A stretch of 64,000 nt of DNA from an uncultured Alphaproteobacteria bacterium (GCA_963823225.1 CAWGKM010000003.1:1584274-1648273); one strand, 5' to 3'; numbered from the stretch's first letter, positions 4,444-56,459 are shown. The notes: generated from the sequence alone by a model not told the origin. Program-made: numbers and translations.

Positions 4444-4507
4444 CGCAATCCGGTTGCCGGCGCCGCCTCCCCTGCTCCGCGAATACCGCCGCGGCATGCG
4501 CCGACCG

Positions 4508-6394
4508 CTAAGCGCCCGACGGCGTCGGCCAGTGCCGCTCGCGGAACCACGGGCGGTATTCCGTCATCTTCGCGCGCTGCGCCGCCGGCGCATGCCGCTT
4601 GCACGTCGACGCTTCGTCGCTGCCGGCCGGCGCGCCCCAGCGCAGCTCGACGCAGTCATTCGGGTTGTACGCCATCTCGAGATCCGCCGCGCGGTCGATC
4701 ACGTCTTTGAGCGAGAGCGTCCACGCGGAGCCGTCGCTGCGCGTATAGGTGAATTTGCGCGTCGCGAGATCCGAGGCGAGCGCGCCCTGCAATTCGGCCT
4801 TCACGTCCGCCACGTTCTTGCCTTGCGGTATCGCGTAGCGCTCGGCCCGCCGCGCGACGTGGTCCGGAAAGCCGCGCACCACATCGATGGCGATCAACAG
4901 ACGAAAATCGCGCGCCGGCGTCGAGAAATCTTCCCACGCGCCGGTCGTCTCGAAGATCGCCGCGCCGCCCGGCATATTGGCGTCGCCGCGGGACTCGTTC
5001 TGAAACTTTCGCCCGTTTTCGACCGCCGTGACGCGCGTCTTCACTTGCTCGTCGAGCGAGGTGATCGCGTCTTCCATCGCGCGCGAAGGATCGAGCGGCT
5101 GGGGCGACATCACGTCATCCATCCGGTCGTAGAACTGTTCGGCGCTGAGCTGCGACTGATCGAGCGAAAAATCGTCGTAGTCCGGGTCTTTCGCGATCTC
5201 GGCGTTGGTCAATCGCCGCAAGGCGCCGTTTCCCTCGCGCACGATCGGCCGGAAGCGCTTGAAGCCGGGACTGCCGAGCGCGGGATCGTGCACGAACAGG
5301 AAGTTGCCGCGCCAAAAACGCTTGCGCGTAACCGACCCGTCGGGCTCGGCGTCGACGGCGAGGAAGACACCGGCCGACCCGCCGGACTGCGGCACGCGCC
5401 GCACCAGCATCATGACGTGCCCGTAGGGATCGGCATAGACGGTGCCCGGGCGCAGCGTCTGTTGCGTCAACGGTACGGTATAAAAATCGGTGTTGTCGTC
5501 GGTCGCCAGCACCCGCACAGCGCCTGACTGCACCGCGTCGCCGACGACCCGCAAATAATCGCCGTACGAAGCTCCGACCTTCTGCGCCGCATCGGGATGG
5601 AGATTGCTGTACCACCCGTAGCACTTGGGCGGCTTGCCGGCGTCGCCGCGCGAGCACTTCGAATATCCGAACGGCAGCCCCAGCTTGAACGCGAAATAGG
5701 CGCGCAGGAAATACACCATATCGGCGCAGTCGGGGTGAAGGGCCATCGCCACTTCGTCTTCGCCGCGGCCCAAATAATCGAACAGCATGTTGCGCGATCG
5801 ATCGCGCAGCACGTCATGCAATGTCGGCCATGACAGCTCCGTGTCGGGCGGCGCGTCGAACAGTTTTTCGATCCATGCCGAATACAAATTTTCCGTCGCG
5901 CGGTTCCAGATATTGCGCACGGGCCAGACGTTTGCCGGCGTCGCGGGTGGTGGCGGCGGCGGCTCGTCGCGCACCGCAATTTCGCGCGTGATCGTGCTGC
6001 AGCCGGCCGGCGCCAGCGTCGCGCGCCAGGTCCCCGCGGCCGGCGAGGCGACCTCGGCGAACCAGAAATACGGCGGCCCGCCTTGGCGGTCGCGCGATTT
6101 GGCCGCGACGCTTCCATCGGGCGCGATCAGGGAAAGCTCGCCCTCGAGCGGCTTCTCCGCGGCGAAGATGACGCGCAACGGCGCGCCTTTCCACGGCGCG
6201 ATCGGCGCGGGCAACACCCCGAGTTCGGCCGCGTCCGCGCAGAGGCTGGATGAACTTTCGGCCCGTGCGTCCGCGGCTGCGAAAAGGACGACAAAAAACG
6301 CCGCCGCGATCGGCAGCAATGCCGTCACGGCAGCGGCAAACCGGCGCGCTAGAAACAATCGAGCCCCCTTTCCCGGAGCGCCCTCGACCTGCAT
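4508..6394 (-). CDS. Large secreted/membrane-anchored hypothetical protein
   Basis: Uninterrupted 663-codon ORF with high GC3. Probable start is MQVEG ahead of a hydrophobic segment (LLPIAAAFFVVLFAAA). No family recognised. Confidence 0.55.
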   Translation of the reverse strand: MQVEGAPGKGARLFLARRFAAAVTALLPIAAAFFVVLFAAADARAESSSSLCADAAELGVLPAPIAPWKGAPLRVIFAAEKPLEGELSLIAPDGSVAAKSRDRQGGPPYFWFAEVASPAAGTWRATLAPAGCSTITREIAVRDEPPPPPPATPANVWPVRNIWNRATENLYSAWIEKLFDAPPDTELSWPTLHDVLRDRSRNMLFDYLGRGEDEVAMALHPDCADMVYFLRAYFAFKLGLPFGYSKCSRGDAGKPPKCYGWYSNLHPDAAQKVGASYGDYLRVVGDAVQSGAVRVLATDDNTDFYTVPLTQQTLRPGTVYADPYGHVMMLVRRVPQSGGSAGVFLAVDAEPDGSVTRKRFWRGNFLFVHDPALGSPGFKRFRPIVREGNGALRRLTNAEIAKDPDYDDFSLDQSQLSAEQFYDRMDDVMSPQPLDPSRAMEDAITSLDEQVKTRVTAVENGRKFQNESRGDANMPGGAAIFETTGAWEDFSTPARDFRLLIAIDVVRGFPDHVARRAERYAIPQGKNVADVKAELQGALASDLATRKFTYTRSDGSAWTLSLKDVIDRAADLEMAYNPNDCVELRWGAPAGSDEASTCKRHAPAAQRAKMTEYRPWFRERHWPTPSGA

Positions 6395-11949: not shown

Positions 11950-12040
11950 GCCGCGAATGCTTAACCGAGCGTTAACGACGGTTCCTTACGATTGACCGCG
12001 CGAGGCTGGACGCGGTCGCGTTCGCCGCGCGGGAGGCAGT

Positions 12041-12586
12041 ATGGTCCGCATCGACTTCAACCGCTTGCGCTTTCTGGTCATCGACGACAATGCGCATATG
12101 CGACGGATCCTGCGCACGCTGTTGCACGGATTCGGCACCCGAGAAGTCTACGAAGCCGAAGACGGCGCCGCCGGCCTCGAAGCCTTCACCCATTACATGC
12201 CGGACATCATCATCGCCGACTGGGTGATGCCGATTTTCGACGGTTTGGAATTGGCGCAGATGATCCGTCAGCCGGGCGCCAACGCCAATCCTTACGTGCC
12301 GATCATCATGCTCACCGGCCATTCCGAGAAGAAACGCGTGGTCAGCGCGCGCGATGCCGGCGTCACCGAGTTCCTCGCCAAGCCGATTTCGGCCAAGGCG
12401 CTGTACGAACGCATTCTCAACGTGGTCGCCAATCCGCGGCCGTTCATCAAAAGCAAAACCTATTTCGGGCCGGACCGGCGGCGCAACGTCAACCCGAACT
12501 ATGTCGGCCCGGAACGGCGCAAGGGCGGCAAGGCGGAAATCTCGCGCCAACAGCCGCTGCTCGATAAAGCCAAGGTCTTGATCTGA
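12041..12586 (+). CDS. Single-domain response regulator (CheY-like receiver) with a basic C-terminal tail
   Basis: Has the receiver hallmarks LVIDDN...DIIIADWVMP...LTGHS...FLAKP. Confidence 0.8.
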   Translation: MVRIDFNRLRFLVIDDNAHMRRILRTLLHGFGTREVYEAEDGAAGLEAFTHYMPDIIIADWVMPIFDGLELAQMIRQPGANANPYVPIIMLTGHSEKKRVVSARDAGVTEFLAKPISAKALYERILNVVANPRPFIKSKTYFGPDRRRNVNPNYVGPERRKGGKAEISRQQPLLDKAKVLI

Positions 12587-51907: not shown

Positions 51908-51952
51908 CACATCGCAGCGGCGTCCGACAAGCCTTCAGACCGGGCAACTCGA

Positions 51953-52402
51953 TTAATGGTGAAGGCGTTTGATCTGATTTCTCAGATGCAACTTGCGGCG
52001 CTTGAGATCGGCAATCGACAAATCATCGGTCGACTTACAAATCAAAATCTCGTCGATCTCAGCTTCAAGCCGTTCAAGGTCGCCGATATAGGCATGCCCC
52101 TTCGTTATATTCTCCGACTCGATGTCTGAACGCGCGCGGTTGCAGATGGGCTGATCGACCTGCAGTTCGCACAAAATGTCGGCAACCGGACAGAAGCTTG
52201 GAGCGACCGCCACCGACCGAGGCATGCTGTCGAGCCAGTCGCGGCAGGTTTGTTTGCACGGGCAAGCCTCGCACCTGTTCAACGCAGTGGCGTAGCTTAG
52301 GCCCAACACCGACACCGCGCCGCCGCCCGGATCGACACCGAGGCGCTCCATCATTTCGAACAGATAAATCGATTGACCTTCACGCGGGACTGGAGCGGTC
52401 AT
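51953..52402 (-). CDS. DUF6455-like N-terminal domain fused to a DUF465 (YdcH-like) C-terminal motif
   Basis: LFEMMERLGVD...CEACPCKQTCRDWL (Cys cluster), then LERLEAEIDEIL...DLSIADLKRRKLHLRNQIKRL. Confidence 0.45.
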   Translation of the reverse strand: MTAPVPREGQSIYLFEMMERLGVDPGGGAVSVLGLSYATALNRCEACPCKQTCRDWLDSMPRSVAVAPSFCPVADILCELQVDQPICNRARSDIESENITKGHAYIGDLERLEAEIDEILICKSTDDLSIADLKRRKLHLRNQIKRLHH

Positions 52403-52842
52403 TCTAACCCTCCCTTCCCTTATGGCCCGCCAAGCGCACAGCTTAGCAGAGCGCCAGCTCGCGTCTTGATCTGGATCAAAATCGACTTCAGAATCGCCGC
52501 ATATCGATTCCGATCCACAAGATAAATCGACTGCATAAAAGTTAAGCAATGTTGGCGCGACGTTGCTGTCCGCCTCGGCTCATCCGCGTCGATTTCTGCA
52601 CCCGCCAGGCATGCCCGCAATGCCTCCGATCGCTGCCGAATTGCTGCATGACGGCAACCGACGTTTCGGGGCCGAAGCTGCCTCACGCATCGCAAAAGCG
52701 AGTCGTGGAAGATTTCGCCCTCGCCACGATCAGAAATACTCATCGCGTTTCAGACGAGCGAGGCACGGTTTACAAAGTTGCATAGCGTAGGCATCTGCGG
52801 ATGGCAGCAATATCAAGCGCGTCCCCAACGAAAGGTGGGAAG

Positions 52843-53256
52843 ATGAAGCGTCAACCAAAGGCAGCAAGCAAGGCGGCCTCCAAACTAATCAGCGATAGGA
52901 TAGCCGAGTTGGGTGACTGGAGAGGCGAGACACTCGCAAGGATGCGCGCCCTCATCAGGGAGGCCGACCCTGGTGTTGTGGAAGAGTGGAAGTGGAGGGG
53001 AACCCCGGTATGGTCCCATGACGGGGGCATCTGCACGGGAGAGTCGTACAAGTCGATCGTGAAGCTGACCTTCTTTAAGGGCGCTTCCTTGAAAGATGCC
53101 GCCAAGCTCTTCAATTCGAGCCTTGACGGGAACGTAAGGCGCGCCATCGACATTCACGAGGGTGAGGAGATTGACGCGAATGCGTTCAAGGCGCTCATCC
53201 GCGCGGCCGTCGCTCTCAATACTTCTGGCGGAAAGAAGTCCACGAAACGCAAGTGA
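52843..53256 (+). CDS. DUF1801 (YdhG-like) domain protein
   Basis: IAELGDWRGETLARMRALI...EEWKWRGTPVWSHDG...KLTFFKGASL is typical of DUF1801. Confidence 0.7.
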   Translation: MKRQPKAASKAASKLISDRIAELGDWRGETLARMRALIREADPGVVEEWKWRGTPVWSHDGGICTGESYKSIVKLTFFKGASLKDAAKLFNSSLDGNVRRAIDIHEGEEIDANAFKALIRAAVALNTSGGKKSTKRK

Positions 53257-53495
53257 GCATTCCAGGCAATCCCACCCCTGAACATGTCCGACATCGGGGC
53301 CGCAGAAGTGTCGTTCCTGCCGAGGGTTCTCATTGCCCGCGCTGTTGGATCGGCGGCGCCCAGTCCGCTCCTGCCCAATAAGCCGACATTAGCGTGCTTC
53401 TCACCCAACAGCGGTCATTTCGCTGCGTTGCACTAGGTGACGCTGCGACCTAGGCTCGGACGTAGCGCGATGTCCGCGTCATGTCTGCTTCACGC

Positions 53496-53729
53496 CTAAA
53501 AGCGGTGAGGGTGCGGTCCGGCAGGCGGAATGTATAAGTTGTTAGGTTGGCAGAACCCACCGATCCCACTCACGTAGGCCATGCACTGATCGTGGGTGGA
53601 AAAGCCGCAATTGTAGGCAGCATCGCCCATGTTGAGAACCGCACACCACGGATAATTTTGCGCTTTAGCTGGCGTGCCGATTGCCGCCATACCGGCGAGT
53701 AGTCCCAGCATGAAGAGTGAAAGTCTCAT
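53496..53729 (-). CDS. DUF3551-family small secreted protein (paralog 1)
   Basis: Signal peptide plus QNYPWCA...NCGFSTHDQCMAYVSGIGGFC. Confidence 0.7.
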   Translation of the reverse strand: MRLSLFMLGLLAGMAAIGTPAKAQNYPWCAVLNMGDAAYNCGFSTHDQCMAYVSGIGGFCQPNNLYIPPAGPHPHRF

Positions 53730-53994
53730 AGCCGAACTCCTAGCGTTGCGGCTCTGTGTATGAACACCAATGTGTATTTTTTATTCCAGCAACGAGGATT
53801 GGCATGCATCGAAATCAATAGTGCTGCTGCATTTTGCAGGACGTCGCTTGGGTCATCAACATCATTTTCGGCGCATTTGGCCTTCGTCGGCGGCGGGTAG
53901 CAGTTACTGATATCAGCATGCCGCGGGTGGAAGCCAGGACGGCTAGCGACCGTTGGCGAACTGCTGCACAAGTCGTAGTGCGGCGACAATTCGG

Positions 53995-54249
53995 TCAATA
54001 ATGAGGACGTCTTGGAGACTTTGTGAGCGGATGAGGTCCGGGCGGATGGTAAGTATTGTTTTGGATGCAGAAACCGCCGATACCGCTCACATCGGCCATG
54101 CACTGTTGGTAGGTTGAGAAGCCGCAATTCATGCTGCCGCTCATGGCGCCGCCGTATTGCGCACACCAGGGATAATTTTGCCCTTCGGCCGGGGTGCAAA
54201 ACGCAGTTGCCGCGGCGGTAATGCCAAATACGAACAGCAATGACTTCAT
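53995..54249 (-). CDS. DUF3551-family small secreted protein (paralog 2)
   Basis: QNYPWCAQY...NCGFSTYQQCMADVSGIGGFC. Confidence 0.7.
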   Translation of the reverse strand: MKSLLFVFGITAAATAFCTPAEGQNYPWCAQYGGAMSGSMNCGFSTYQQCMADVSGIGGFCIQNNTYHPPGPHPLTKSPRRPHY

Positions 54250-54482
54250 AGTCGCCTTCCGGATTTGGGGGATGGATGGGCTGGAACGTATAAGCTGTTA
54301 AGTTGGCAGAACCCTCCGATCCCACTTATGGTGGCCATGCATTGTTGAAAGGTTGTGAATCCGCAAGTCGCGCCGTCCCTGTAGCTGTATTGCGCGCACC
54401 ACGGATAATTTTGAGCCTCCGCGCGCGTGTTGATCGCGGTTGTCACCACGAAAAATCCTAACGCAAAAAGAAAACACCTCAT
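54246..54482 (-). CDS. DUF3551-family small secreted protein (paralog 3)
   Basis: QNYPWCAQY...CGFTTFQQCMATISGIGGFC. Overlaps paralog 2 by 4 nt. Confidence 0.7.
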   Translation of the reverse strand: MRCFLFALGFFVVTTAINTRAEAQNYPWCAQYSYRDGATCGFTTFQQCMATISGIGGFCQLNSLYVPAHPSPKSGRRL

Positions 54483-54960
54483 GACCGGTCTCCTTTGGAT
54501 TGCGTTGGCTCTCGGTTATTAACGCCGAACCCGCTATTTTATTCCACCGATCACGAACAGAATTTTGGCTGCGCTGTGACCCTTCCGAAGACTAGAAAAG
54601 TAACCCATGGGGCGCAAAACAGTCCGAGATGGTGACGCTGTTGTGGCAGACCAGGGCTGTTTTCGCCCAGCGCAAAAATCATCAATCTCTCGACTGCTGC
54701 GATGCACACTCCACTTCCCACGTGGGTCATTCACGTCATTACGGGCCGCGGGTTCGGACTTCCGCTTGTCCCCCAATTGCAGACATATCGCTGCACCGCA
54801 CTAACCGTCGCGGAGGGCCAGGAACGCGCCCTACCTTCCGCTTCTCGGCCGGGAGATCACAAACAATACGAGCCCTCGCCGGCGCCGGTGCATGTGAACC
54901 TAGGGCGAACCTAAGCAAATCAGATTCGGATGCCGTATTTACACAAGCCACTGACATTGC

Positions 54961-55015
54961 TGGTGCGGACGGCCGGACTTGAACCGGCACGGGGTTGCCC
55001 CCAAGGGATTTTAAG
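54961..55015 (-). pseudogene. 3' half (anticodon loop to CCA) of a disrupted tRNA-Leu(UAA)
   Basis: The minus strand reads CTTAAAATCCCTTGGGGGCAACCCCGTGCCGGTTCAAGTCCGGCCGTCCGCACCA. No matching 5' half is adjacent. The partner lies at 56260-56297. Confidence 0.85.
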
Positions 55016-55154
55016 TCTTTGGAGGCTAGCAAAAAGCCCTTATTTCATTGGGTTTTTCGACCGTCAAATTCGAAGTGTGTAAGAAAGTGTGTGAGACTTA
55101 AATTCCTATCCACGTGCCATTGACGGAATTGCACGGTCTCGACAGGTTCGGAGG

Positions 55155-55385
55155 ATGCAATTCGAGATTCTCGGCGCAATTTCGCAGGTCGAGACGTTCG
55201 CCGCTGGGACCGGAATTCGTGAAATCGCGCGGCTACGCAGGATCTATGGGCGGGGCCGCTGGCGCAAACGCAAGGGCGTCGCTCGCATTCGATTGCCCAA
55301 TGGCTCTATTCATATGGCTGAAGTACACTGGTACGAAGCCAGCGGAATCGGCCGCAAGGAATTCAAGATCAAACATCTGCTTTAA
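55155..55385 (+). CDS. Small hypothetical protein (76 aa), first gene of a compact pair
   Basis: ORF MQFEILGAISQVETFAAG...RWRKRKGVARIRLPNGSIHMAEVHWYEASGIGRKEFKIKHLL. GGAGG sits immediately before the ATG. The family looks familiar but I cannot name it. Confidence 0.5.
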   Translation: MQFEILGAISQVETFAAGTGIREIARLRRIYGRGRWRKRKGVARIRLPNGSIHMAEVHWYEASGIGRKEFKIKHLL

Positions 55386-55396
55386 AACGCAAAGCC

Positions 55397-55627
55397 ATGG
55401 CAAAATCGCAAGCGAAGCAACTGGTCGTATGCGTCAGCAACGAGGGCTATTCGGCCTCGCTCGAAAAGCGCAAAATTTATGTCGCGCTCCGCGACGCCGA
55501 CGCCGAAAAGCATAGCCTGCTTCGGATCGTCGATAAATCCGGGGAAGACTATCTCTTCCCGAAATCATTCTTTCGTTCGATCGCCTTGCCGCAAGCCGTC
55601 AGGAAGGCCGTATTAGCGGCGGCATAA
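55397..55627 (+). CDS. Small hypothetical protein (76 aa), second gene of the pair
   Basis: Starts 11 nt after the first ORF's stop. MAKSQAKQLVVCVSNEGYSASLEKRKIYVALRDADAEKHSLLRIVDKSGEDYLFPKSFF. Confidence 0.5.
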   Translation: MAKSQAKQLVVCVSNEGYSASLEKRKIYVALRDADAEKHSLLRIVDKSGEDYLFPKSFFRSIALPQAVRKAVLAAA

Positions 55628-55912
55628 TTCCGCGACGCCTGGCGCCTAACCTGGGAAGGCTTCGCCATAACGGCACGCGGAGGCGCAGTCCAACGCCGCG
55701 GCGCCTGTCGCTCATTGGTGGACAATCACACCGAACTTCAGCATGTCATCCTGACGGCTGAACGCGTAGTTGAACAACGGCGATGCCGGCGGCGGCGGTG
55801 GCGTAACAAATCGTCTCACTACGCTCATGTTACGCATGAGCTTCGAGGGACATCCTTCGCCCAAGATGCGGCTTTGGCTAGCTGCGCCATCCGAAGCCCG
55901 CAGGGCGAAGGA

Positions 55913-56202
55913 TGGTGCGGGCGGCCGGAATCGAACCGGCACGGGGTTTCCCCCAACGGATTTTCGTACCAGCTACGGCTTTCACCGCCGCCGCGAATGG
56001 CGTTTGTGGTCTGGACTATACCTTCGCCGTAGCGTGAGCCTTAGGCGCTGCCCGTCTAGTCTCTACACCTTCCCTTTCGGGCTTGGCTCGGGATTGCCAT
56101 CTGACAGGTTTCCCCGACTTTGAGCAGTTCTACGTCTCGGGTTTCCCGCGAGCGCACTCAATTTCCTTAAGTCCGTTGCGTCTACCGTTCCGCCACGCCC
56201 GC
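55913..56202 (-). tRNA. tRNA-Leu (anticodon UAA) interrupted by a group I intron between U34 and A35
   Basis: Exon 1 (56202..56169) is GCGGGCGTGGCGGAACGGTAGACGCAACGGACTT. Exon 2 (55964..55913) is AAAATCCGTTGGGGGAAACCCCGTGCCGGTTCGATTCCGGCCGCCCGCACCA. Joined, they give a complete class II cloverleaf. Confidence 0.85.
55965..56168 (-). ncRNA. Group I intron (IC3-like, 204 nt, no ORF)
   Basis: Core strings CUCAAAGUCGGGGAAACCU, AUGGCAAUCCCGAGCCAAGCC, GAAGGUGUAGAGACUAGACGGG and CCUAAGGCUCACGCUACGG match the remembered Azoarcus tRNA-Ile and Anabaena tRNA-Leu introns. U precedes the 5' splice site and the terminal nucleotide is G. Confidence 0.85.
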
Positions 56203-56259
56203 ATTGCGTTGATCACATACCCTGCCCGTCTGACCGGACAGCAGTCCTAAATTTGCAAC

Positions 56260-56297
56260 TTTTAAGTCCCTTGCGTCTACCATTTCGCCACGTCCGC
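56260..56297 (-). pseudogene. 5' half (position 1 to anticodon loop) of the disrupted tRNA-Leu(UAA)
   Basis: The minus strand reads GCGGACGTGGCGAAATGGTAGACGCAAGGGACTTAAAA. Its acceptor strand GCGGACG and anticodon stem AGGGA pair with CGTCCGC and TCCCT of the 54961-55015 fragment. Confidence 0.85.
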
Positions 56298-56459
56298 GAA
56301 GCGGACATCGATAAGGACGTCCGCGGAGCGGACATCCGTTCGGACATCCGCGCGGCGGCATTTGTAGCACTCGCGGCGCGTGCCCCGGAAGCGACGATAA
56401 ATTCGAAAAGGCCGATCCCGTCCCGATCCGGCCCGGCCCGCCGCAACGGTTAGGTCCGT

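Follow-up and report, generated by a model that had tools for sequence, protein, structure and literature searches.

Three kinds of described systems bear on the locus considered here. The first is the group I intron of the cyanobacterial and plastid tRNA-Leu(UAA) gene (subgroup IC3; 'Leu.3Ug' in the naming of Williams, 2020, bioRxiv 10.1101/2020.01.27.920355), which lies at the CUU/AAAA site of the anticodon loop, has a U-1.G wobble pair and a terminal G, contains no open reading frame (ORF) and folds into the P1-P9 architecture. The second is tRNA-dependent lysogeny, shown experimentally in mycobacteriophages (Fionnbharth and others; Guerrero-Bustamante & Hatfull, 2024, PMC10865867), in which the core shared by the attachment (att) sites is only ~10 bp, the host tRNA gene is left unrebuilt upon integration and a phage tRNA of the same isotype is required. 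The third comprises the classical tRNA islands (Islander/TIGER), which have a tyrosine integrase, a crossover in the anticodon loop and a displaced tRNA fragment at one end (PMC4383910); the 3' part of the tRNA comes with their attP, and the gene is thereby regenerated. A 64,000-nt stretch of DNA from an uncultured Alphaproteobacteria bacterium (GCA_963823225.1, CAWGKM010000003.1:1584274-1648273), the whole of which we call the window, resembles each of these in part: an intron-bearing tRNA-Leu(UAA) gene, gene B (56202..55913, minus strand), lies within a 1,242-bp insertion (56259..55018) by which another tRNA-Leu(UAA) gene, the intron-less gene A, is cut in the anticodon loop. We propose that this insertion is probably the worn-down remnant of a 'disrupt-and-replace' integrative element.

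Calling gene B required the intron option of ARAGORN (-i); at default settings the program made no call at 55913-56202. With the intron search on, it returned an 86-nt mature tRNA interrupted at site 34/35 by a 204-nt intron (junction 'gactt-Intron-aaaat'), which begins with AAGGAAATTGAG and ends with GGTACG, the last letter being the terminal omega G. A preliminary description of gene B, made from the sequence alone, had given these coordinates, the exon sizes (34 and 52 nt), the U34/A35 site and the boundary strings, and had suggested a tRNA finder with intron detection as a check; the ARAGORN call agrees with it exactly, and U34/A35 is, as it held, the classical intron site of tRNA-Leu(UAA). 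With the intron removed, gene B has the features of a tRNA-Leu(UAA): a cloverleaf with a long variable arm, the UAA anticodon, GG in the D-loop, TTCGA in the T-loop and an encoded CCA (ARAGORN). A scan for consensus promoters around genes B and A found nothing.

Gene B is interrupted by a genuine group I intron, which belongs to the small bacterial tRNA (IC3-like) type. The Rfam covariance model RF00028 (Intron_gpI) matches 56178..55992 (-) over its full length (model positions 1-253) with 51.0 bits, over the gathering score of 50 (E = 5e-10); a close homologue in another contig (L007; the loci and contigs compared are given by L numbers) scores 48.9 bits. We drew the structure by hand on the window sequence (P1, P2, P3, P4, P5, P6/6a, P7, P8, P9.0, P9a and P9, including the P3/P7 pseudoknot) and tested the resulting fold, with 54 pairs in 13 helices, on an alignment of 43 pre-tRNA-Leu(UAA) homologues having the intron core. 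Standard pairs occupy 96.7% of the cells, compared with 28-46% in controls where one partner is shifted against the other by 1-3 columns; double-sided changes occur in 29 of the 54 pairs; and none of 500 shuffles reached any of the observed pairing measures, so that the support for the fold is far beyond chance. All 43 sequences have the U-1.G wobble of P1 at the 5' splice site, and P7 is unvarying among them; GAAA loops cap P2, P6a and P9. Thus the bacterial tRNA-type group I identity given in the preliminary description stands, with the covariance-model match it had suggested seeking, the P1-P9 fold on which it had staked that identity, and three hairpins of the GAAA-capped kind it had noticed. 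It was likewise right that there is no homing endonuclease ORF, the 204 nt being too short for one and wholly occupied by ribozyme helices, and the class of homing-endonuclease-mobile introns is thereby ruled out. Because of the conserved core and the U-1.G and terminal-G boundaries, the intron is predicted to excise itself from the precursor, which should yield the 86-nt tRNA.

In its gene, site, wobble pair, terminal G, lack of an ORF and architecture, this intron agrees with the cyanobacterial and plastid one; it differs in its host, a Bradyrhizobium/Xanthobacteraceae-like alphaproteobacterium as judged from DUF3551 genes and best relatives, in its shortness and minimal P5, and in being borne by an element instead of being a resident copy. 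The J6/7-P7-P3 core GAAGGUGUAGAGACUAGACGG and a receptor-like P8 (CCUAAG...UA(U/C)GG) are presumably Azoarcus-like, a resemblance that we take as a lead and not as a test; the Azoarcus intron is of similar small size with GAAA loops and sits in a different tRNA at a different loop site.

What the preliminary description overlooked is that an insertion breaks a resident tRNA-Leu(UAA) gene at the very loop that houses the intron; its remark that the intron was travelling inside an insertion is accurate, gene B lying within the 1,242 bp. The stretches 56297..56260 and 55017..54961 are the two halves of one intron-less tRNA-Leu(UAA) gene, because their strands are complementary (acceptor stem GCGGACG/CGTCCGC, anticodon stem AGGGA/TCCCT) and unlike those of gene B (GCGGGCG and ACGGA, respectively), and because they have a 9-bp direct repeat in common. 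The 5' half, 95 nt upstream of gene B, ends right after the 7-nt anticodon loop, and a pattern search for it gave 2 matches against 0 expected. Neither junction rebuilds gene A: past the 5' half the sequence turns into non-tRNA DNA, and the DNA leading up to the 3' half is non-tRNA as well. A classical tRNA-restoring island is ruled out, since the junctions diverge directly past the anticodon loop; unlike in such islands, identity extends over no more than 9-12 bp, and the complete gene comes as a separate copy.

The same arrangement is found in orthologous loci. Two Logan contigs (L005/L006) are near-identical to the window and have its layout; two soil-metagenome contigs (L007/L008) carry the 3' half of gene A, the ORF pair of the insertion (92-95% identical) and gene B in the same order; and L266, the 1 relevant contig among 10 from a metagenome scan with the leader that precedes gene B, has the 5' half of gene A followed by the same leader, as at the left junction of the window. 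The leader core TAGGACTGCTGTCCGGTC is kept in L007/L008/L266. Because these contigs repeat the layout, the arrangement is real, old and vertically inherited, with gene A decaying. The 5' half in L266 has lost both G18 (G18->A) and the UAA anticodon (UAA->CAA), for which reason we regard gene A as a pseudogene and reject the idea that its halves form a functional split tRNA. One detail sits oddly with a pseudogene: in its variable arm the 3' half reads GGGGG CAA CCCC in the window (55001-54990) and GGGAG TAAC TTCCC in L007 (~3712-3695), an apparent compensatory change that keeps the pairing and could be due to chance, gene conversion or independent insertions. We give almost no credence to an assembly artefact, that is, a chimeric contig joining two tRNA-Leu loci. 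Several metagenome contigs do break near the repeated 5' exon (the independent contigs L007, L008 and L266 stop no more than a few tens of bases away from the leader or from the 5' exon of gene B), likely because the duplicated 5' portion of the tRNA breaks short-read assemblies; however, a 2.7-Mb contig shows the layout, as do independent assemblies from two Logan runs, a metagenome in ENA and two in JGI, and the divergence among these assemblies fits true orthologues.

Relatives of the insertion suggest how it may have arisen. At 17 other loci, from unrelated taxa, the cognate tRNA is likewise broken where its anticodon loop ends, and many of these loci have a tyrosine integrase beside the break. 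In the full relatives, a host-type 5' half ending in ...CTTAAAA(TC) is followed by arm-like repeats, the tyrosine integrase, 50-105 nt, the intron-bearing tRNA-Leu(UAA) gene and cargo. In Bradyrhizobium lablabi (L048), for example, a host-type 5' half ending in ...GGGACTTAAAATCC is followed by unrelated DNA with three TTAGCAC repeats, a gene for a 415-aa tyrosine recombinase and, 78 nt after it, the intron-bearing tRNA-Leu(UAA) gene and a DNA-methylase gene; the L048 integrase scores slightly below the Pfam cut-off for Phage_integrase and the SAM-like domain and has >6,700 homologues, which their sources name integrase or tyrosine recombinase. The same order is seen in Afipia sp. 62-7 (L132-134) and B. 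diazoefficiens (L135/136), where the cargo includes Eco29kI-type restriction-modification with Vsr, AAA_15/21 with UvrD, Abi_C and type III restriction-modification genes and is in part Gabija-like; in a metagenome-assembled genome (MAG) of Bryobacteraceae (L273) with an MmeI-type enzyme as cargo; in the Bryobacteraceae contig L277, whose pre-tRNA is the closest relative of that of gene B (89% identical); and in Phenylobacterium (L012, L047), Sphingomonadales (L068), Micavibrio (L098) and Acidobacteria (L114). The integrase is present in L012, L047, L048, L068, L098, L114, L132-136 and L273-278, and only a C-terminal stub of it, directly upstream of the intron-bearing tRNA gene, in L018, L028, L054, L065, L100, L103 and L105. 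In a second layout, seen in the window, L014, L066, L126, L127, L077, L017 and L107, a distance of 60-230 nt separates the displaced half from the intron-bearing tRNA gene downstream of it, and recombinase or plasmid genes lie downstream of that gene; this layout also occurs with other tRNAs, namely in Polynucleobacter (L013, tRNA-CAU), Acetobacteraceae (L030, tRNA-Thr) and Vibrio (L057, tRNA-Arg). A complete tRNA gene with the same anticodon lies inside the element in the window and in 12 or more related elements. A member of the same integrase family sits in the loop of tRNA-Leu(CAA) in L275/276, followed by a replacement tRNA-Leu(CAA) that is intron-less and has an altered stem, which supports replacement as a trait of the family; the lack of a replacement in L137-139 is plausible for a dispensable isoacceptor. 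The attR sites and 3' halves of the integrase-bearing elements were not found within the flanks examined, which stop short of the far end.

This recurrence also bears on the reading of the 1.24-kb unit as a non-autonomous transposon, similar to a miniature inverted-repeat transposable element (MITE), that made a 9-bp target duplication and landed in a tRNA gene by chance. Direct repeats of 9 bp are typical for several insertion sequence (IS) families, and there is no recombinase within the unit; yet a chance landing would have to be squared with the 17 further breaks at the same point, and the unit is seen at the tRNA site only (window and orthologous contigs), making this reading quite improbable. 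A repeat scan of the insertion found no terminal inverted repeats at 56259/55018, and its sole conserved ORFs are a pair of 76 aa each without Pfam or NCBIfam match; on these grounds we discarded the IS/MITE class.

As to which of the two genes came in, the acceptor stems of the displaced halves are host-type, GCCCGGR in Acidobacteria and GCGGACG in Bradyrhizobium, Afipia and the window, while the intron-bearing copies have the stem GCGGGCG in common across phyla; gene B is ~82% identical to an acidobacterial copy, equal to its identity with the Bradyrhizobium copies. Because the displaced halves look like their hosts and the intron-bearing copies look like each other, the intron-bearing gene appears to be the incoming one. 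One could turn this around and suppose that gene B is the ancestral chromosomal tRNA-Leu(UAA) and that the pieces of gene A are foreign att-site debris, nothing having been replaced. In line with this, L081, a Xanthobacteraceae MAG, has a B-type gene beside the same 98-aa neighbour gene as the window with no half of gene A, and tRNA fragments are frequent leftovers of islands (PMC9897764). Debris, however, would hardly be expected to consist of complementary pieces that flank gene B in the right order and orientation with a common 9-bp repeat; gene A resembles the chromosomal-side halves of Bradyrhizobium and Afipia (GCGGACG...AGGGACTTAAAA), gene B being of the cross-phylum element type, and two separate deposits would be needed. 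We consider the ancestry of gene B to have very little going for it.

We propose the following scenario. A tyrosine integrase would recombine the host tRNA-Leu(UAA) gene, at its anticodon loop, with a short attP core, the 7-nt loop serving as the overlap region of the reaction; tRNA-targeting integrases are known to prefer this sublocation (PMC4383910). The common core being too short, the host gene would be left unrebuilt, and the element's own complete tRNA-Leu(UAA), with the same anticodon, would take over decoding. In the lineage of the window, the integrase and most of the cargo would subsequently have been lost, gene A would have turned into a pseudogene and gene B would have been fixed as the working gene, with the module of two ORFs as the only content left besides it. 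The scenario shares with tRNA-dependent lysogeny the short core, the unrebuilt gene and the supply of a same-isotype tRNA. Unlike the actinobacteriophages, the carriers here are, as read from sequence, islands with an integrase and defence genes in Proteobacteria and Acidobacteria, the replacement tRNA has a group I intron at the crossover site, and the window copy is integrase-less. Our literature search, the coverage of which was incomplete, found no link between tRNA introns and such islands; a prior description is possible.

Several observations weigh against this assignment and keep us from stating it more firmly than as probable. A tblastn search of the window with the L048 integrase (E <= 1e-3) found no tyrosine integrase or remnant of one, so that it is by analogy that we assign this insertion an integrase origin, and we file the window copy as a relic and not as an active member. 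A matching direct repeat is seen for the window alone among the elements compared, and the window shares with the integrase-bearing elements the intron-bearing tRNA, not the leader or the ORFs. The ORF pair occurs elsewhere in Bradyrhizobium as an ordinary chromosomal pair with no tRNA near. Lastly, the L081 gene just mentioned has a 5' exon identical to that of gene B, lies downstream of the 98-aa neighbour gene, at seemingly the same locus, and has no recognisable half of gene A. The features of the locus are collected in Table 1.

Table 1. Features of the split tRNA-Leu(UAA) locus, in window coordinates.
Feature	Position	Strand	Description and basis
Gene A, displaced 5' half (attL side)	56260..56297	minus	38 nt, GCGGACGTGGCGAAATGGTAGACGCAAGGGACTTAAAA; sequence, pattern search, repeat scan
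Left att-core copy	56260..56268	minus	GACTTAAAA; 9-bp direct repeat, part of anticodon stem plus loop; repeat spacing 1251
Leader	56203..56259	minus	57 nt between att core and gene B; sequence and relatives
Gene B, 5' exon	56169..56202	minus	34 nt, GCGGGCGTGGCGGAACGGTAGACGCAACGGACTT; ARAGORN with intron search
Gene B, group I intron	55965..56168	minus	204 nt; Rfam RF00028, ARAGORN, covariation
Gene B, 3' exon	55913..55964	minus	52 nt, AAAATCCGT...CGCCCGCACCA, encoded CCA; ARAGORN
ORF2, second of pair	55397..55627	plus	76 aa, conserved hypothetical; 2,568 homologues at 80-95% identity
ORF1, first of pair	55155..55385	plus	76 aa, conserved hypothetical; 5,143 homologues, 1,669 clusters at 50% identity
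Possible recombinase-binding relics	55073..55106	minus	tandem TCTCACACACTT/TCTTACACACTT plus inverted imperfect att-core copy GGAATTTAAGTCT
Right att-core copy (attR side)	55009..55017	minus	GACTTAAAA; 9-bp direct repeat scan
Gene A, displaced 3' half	54961..55017	minus	GACTTAAAATCCCTT...CGTCCGCACCA, in full GACTTAAAATCCCTTGGGGGCAACCCCGTGCCGGTTCAAGTCCGGCCGTCCGCACCA; ~900 nt downstream of gene B

Among the remaining contents of the insertion, the repeats near its right end possibly are relics of recombinase-binding sites: these repeats, the tandem TCTYACACACTT pair among them, gave 2 matches against 0.08 expected and are kept in L007, and CTTACACA-like repeats adjoin the integrase gene in L273/L275/L137. 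ORF1 is beta-rich with a basic RWRKRKG patch, and its AF2 model (pLDDT 95.5) shows one long strand, a helix and three strands; compared with the PDB the model gave no significant fold match, and compared with BFVD it found one uncharacterised phage protein as its sole viral neighbour. The AF2 model of ORF2 is poor (pLDDT 66). Neither ORF belongs to a family in Pfam, NCBIfam, PHROG or PADLOC, and neither matches known toxin or antitoxin families in sequence. In L110, which has the layout of the window, a ParD/ParE pair occupies the position and orientation of the ORF pair, and from this position one might guess that ORF1 and ORF2 form an addiction module. L110 has a further peculiarity (4507-5730): its intron-bearing gene has the host-type 3' acceptor strand CGTCCGC and the 3' remnant downstream the element-type CGCCCGC, which looks like an exchange of 3' ends in a later recombination.

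Both flanks of the locus hold further features. Directly upstream of the 5' half of gene A (56298-56352, minus) lie four tight GGAYGTCCGC-like copies, partly kept in L266, of a motif related to the reverse complement of the tRNA 5' end GCGGACGT. Adjoining the 3' half downstream, a stretch of lower GC content (~51950-54960; 0.56 vs about 0.64) contains three tandem genes for DUF3551 secreted proteins as well as one DUF1801 and one DUF6455/DUF465 gene. L007 lacks this stretch and has a DUF697 gene at ~120 nt from the end of the tRNA. The tRNA locus may here have taken up a second insertion, although the stretch showed no flanking repeat.

The intron by itself is ordinary. The preliminary description had taken proteobacterial tRNA group I introns to be described mainly for tRNA-Arg(CCU) and tRNA-Ile(CAU) and a tRNA-Leu(UAA) example therefore to be notable; this argument fails, because both our core-string scan and the survey of Williams (2020, bioRxiv 10.1101/2020.01.27.920355) show many of them. 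A single exact-match scan with the 20-nt core string AAGGTGTAGAGACTAGACGG, over one genome per species, matched at least 120 species genomes. At least 80 species loci among the matches listed are tRNA-Leu(UAA) genes with an intron at U34/A35; these belong to Alpha-, Beta- and Gammaproteobacteria, Acidobacteria, Bacteroidota and Chloroflexi, mostly to Proteobacteria and Acidobacteria, and the taxa listed include Phenylobacterium, Brevundimonas, Hoeflea, Sphingomonadales, Rhodobacterales, Bradyrhizobium, Burkholderia/Paraburkholderia, Carnimonas, Halioglobus, many Acidobacteria and others. The remaining matches listed fall in tRNA-Met/Ile(CAU), Arg(CCU/UCU) and Thr, among others. Relics of the kind described above are found at 19-22 or more of 80 tRNA-Leu(UAA)-intron loci among the matches listed. 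A group I intron in the tRNA-Leu(UAA) gene of a deep-subsurface gamma-proteobacterium was reportedly described in 2002 by Vepritskiy and co-workers, and is not known to have been given a mobile-element context there. Williams (2020, bioRxiv 10.1101/2020.01.27.920355) mapped 5,292 bacterial tRNA group I introns, found one Leu intron type to be confined to Proteobacteria and noted unexplained 'ghost exons' near intron-bearing tRNA genes. Thus the intron of gene B is one more member of a large known class.

Introns of this kind are found on other mobile DNA as well. In IMG/VR the core string occurs in at least 120 viral contigs (L140-L259), at least 42 of which have it in intron-bearing tRNA-Leu(UAA) genes; no L048-type integrase was found in these contigs, and of two weak matches resembling the 5' half neither is at a tRNA-Leu locus, a near-absence that is expected because phage genomes are unintegrated. 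On a 317-kb conjugative plasmid of Bradyrhizobium sp. ISRA443 (L261 6003-6292, NZ_CP094524), an intron-bearing tRNA-Leu(UAA) gene lies beside trb genes; its intron measures 204 nt, the gene is 84.6% identical to that of the window, and no displaced half is near. In E. coli, the widespread aacC2(aac(3)-IId)-tmrB gentamicin-resistance module includes a complete, unannotated intron-bearing tRNA-Leu(UAA) gene between tmrB and 'orf192' (L260 ~6004-6301, plasmid pEC1-1, NZ_CP058575; L272 ~12000-12460, chromosome of E. coli AR_0013), whose intron scores 39.8 bits with RF00028 (E = 1.9e-8), under the gathering score. Of 5,426 complete E. coli genomes, 646 carry this gene at >=99% identity, mainly on plasmids; as a ~77%-identical relative of gene B it is also found in ~1,270 PLSDB plasmids of Escherichia, Klebsiella, Salmonella and Acinetobacter; ~170 nt 5' of it the sequence ...CAGCGGACTTAAAA/AGTC resembles the end of a displaced 5' half. 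One paper on the gentamicin-resistance module mentions neither the tRNA nor the intron.

Why, then, should the replacement gene contain an intron? Let us consider that the intron of the anticodon-loop elements lies within the repeat itself (GACTT/AAAA), and that in the Acidobacteria L014, L066 and L273 the anticodon stem-loops of host and element are otherwise identical, so that the intron alone keeps the element's tRNA from being a perfect attB. Together these suggest that the intron might be kept as a mask of the att site, splitting the crossover sequence CTT/AAAA and thereby shielding the now-essential tRNA from the element's own and rival integrases. We advance this only tentatively. Two observations speak against it: the replacement tRNA of L275/276 has an altered stem in place of an intron, and in Vibrio L057 the displaced tRNA-Arg piece extends to the T loop, from which we place the crossover there away from the intron. 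The main rival of the masking hypothesis is that the intron came to gene B by itself, whether through reverse splicing or through homing from another allele, and rides along as a neutral passenger with no functional tie to the insertion. The classical view of group I introns is that they are selfish or neutral (PMC3984707), the same two cases fit a passenger, and phage contigs likewise carry intron-bearing tRNA-Leu genes. What makes a passenger somewhat unlikely is that there is no homing endonuclease gene, that intron and exons behave as one unit across phyla (82-89% identity), found always in the element copy and never in the displaced host copy, and that in Acidobacteria the intron is the sole difference between host and element at the att core. 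The T loop is the other sublocation favoured by island integrases. The group I introns of tmRNA genes are all in the T loop (PMC11915505). The parallel would be in keeping with masking.

If the insertion is indeed the remnant of a 'disrupt-and-replace' element, such elements would provide a testable vehicle for an old puzzle, the patchy bacterial spread of tRNA group I introns that lack homing endonucleases: intron, exons and often a tyrosine integrase would move jointly, the host tRNA-Leu(UAA) would be lost, and the intron-bearing copy would become the sole one and then be fixed. It would also extend tRNA-dependent lysogeny, so far a matter of actinobacteriophages, to defence islands of Proteobacteria and Acidobacteria. 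Displaced tRNA halves, or 'ghost exons', beside intron-bearing tRNA genes would mark island ends that island finders and tRNA annotators overlook, and assembly breaks at the duplicated 5' portion of the tRNA may hide further such loci in MAGs. If masking should prove true, tRNA introns would be more than selfish passengers, and the T-loop introns of tmRNA could follow the same logic.

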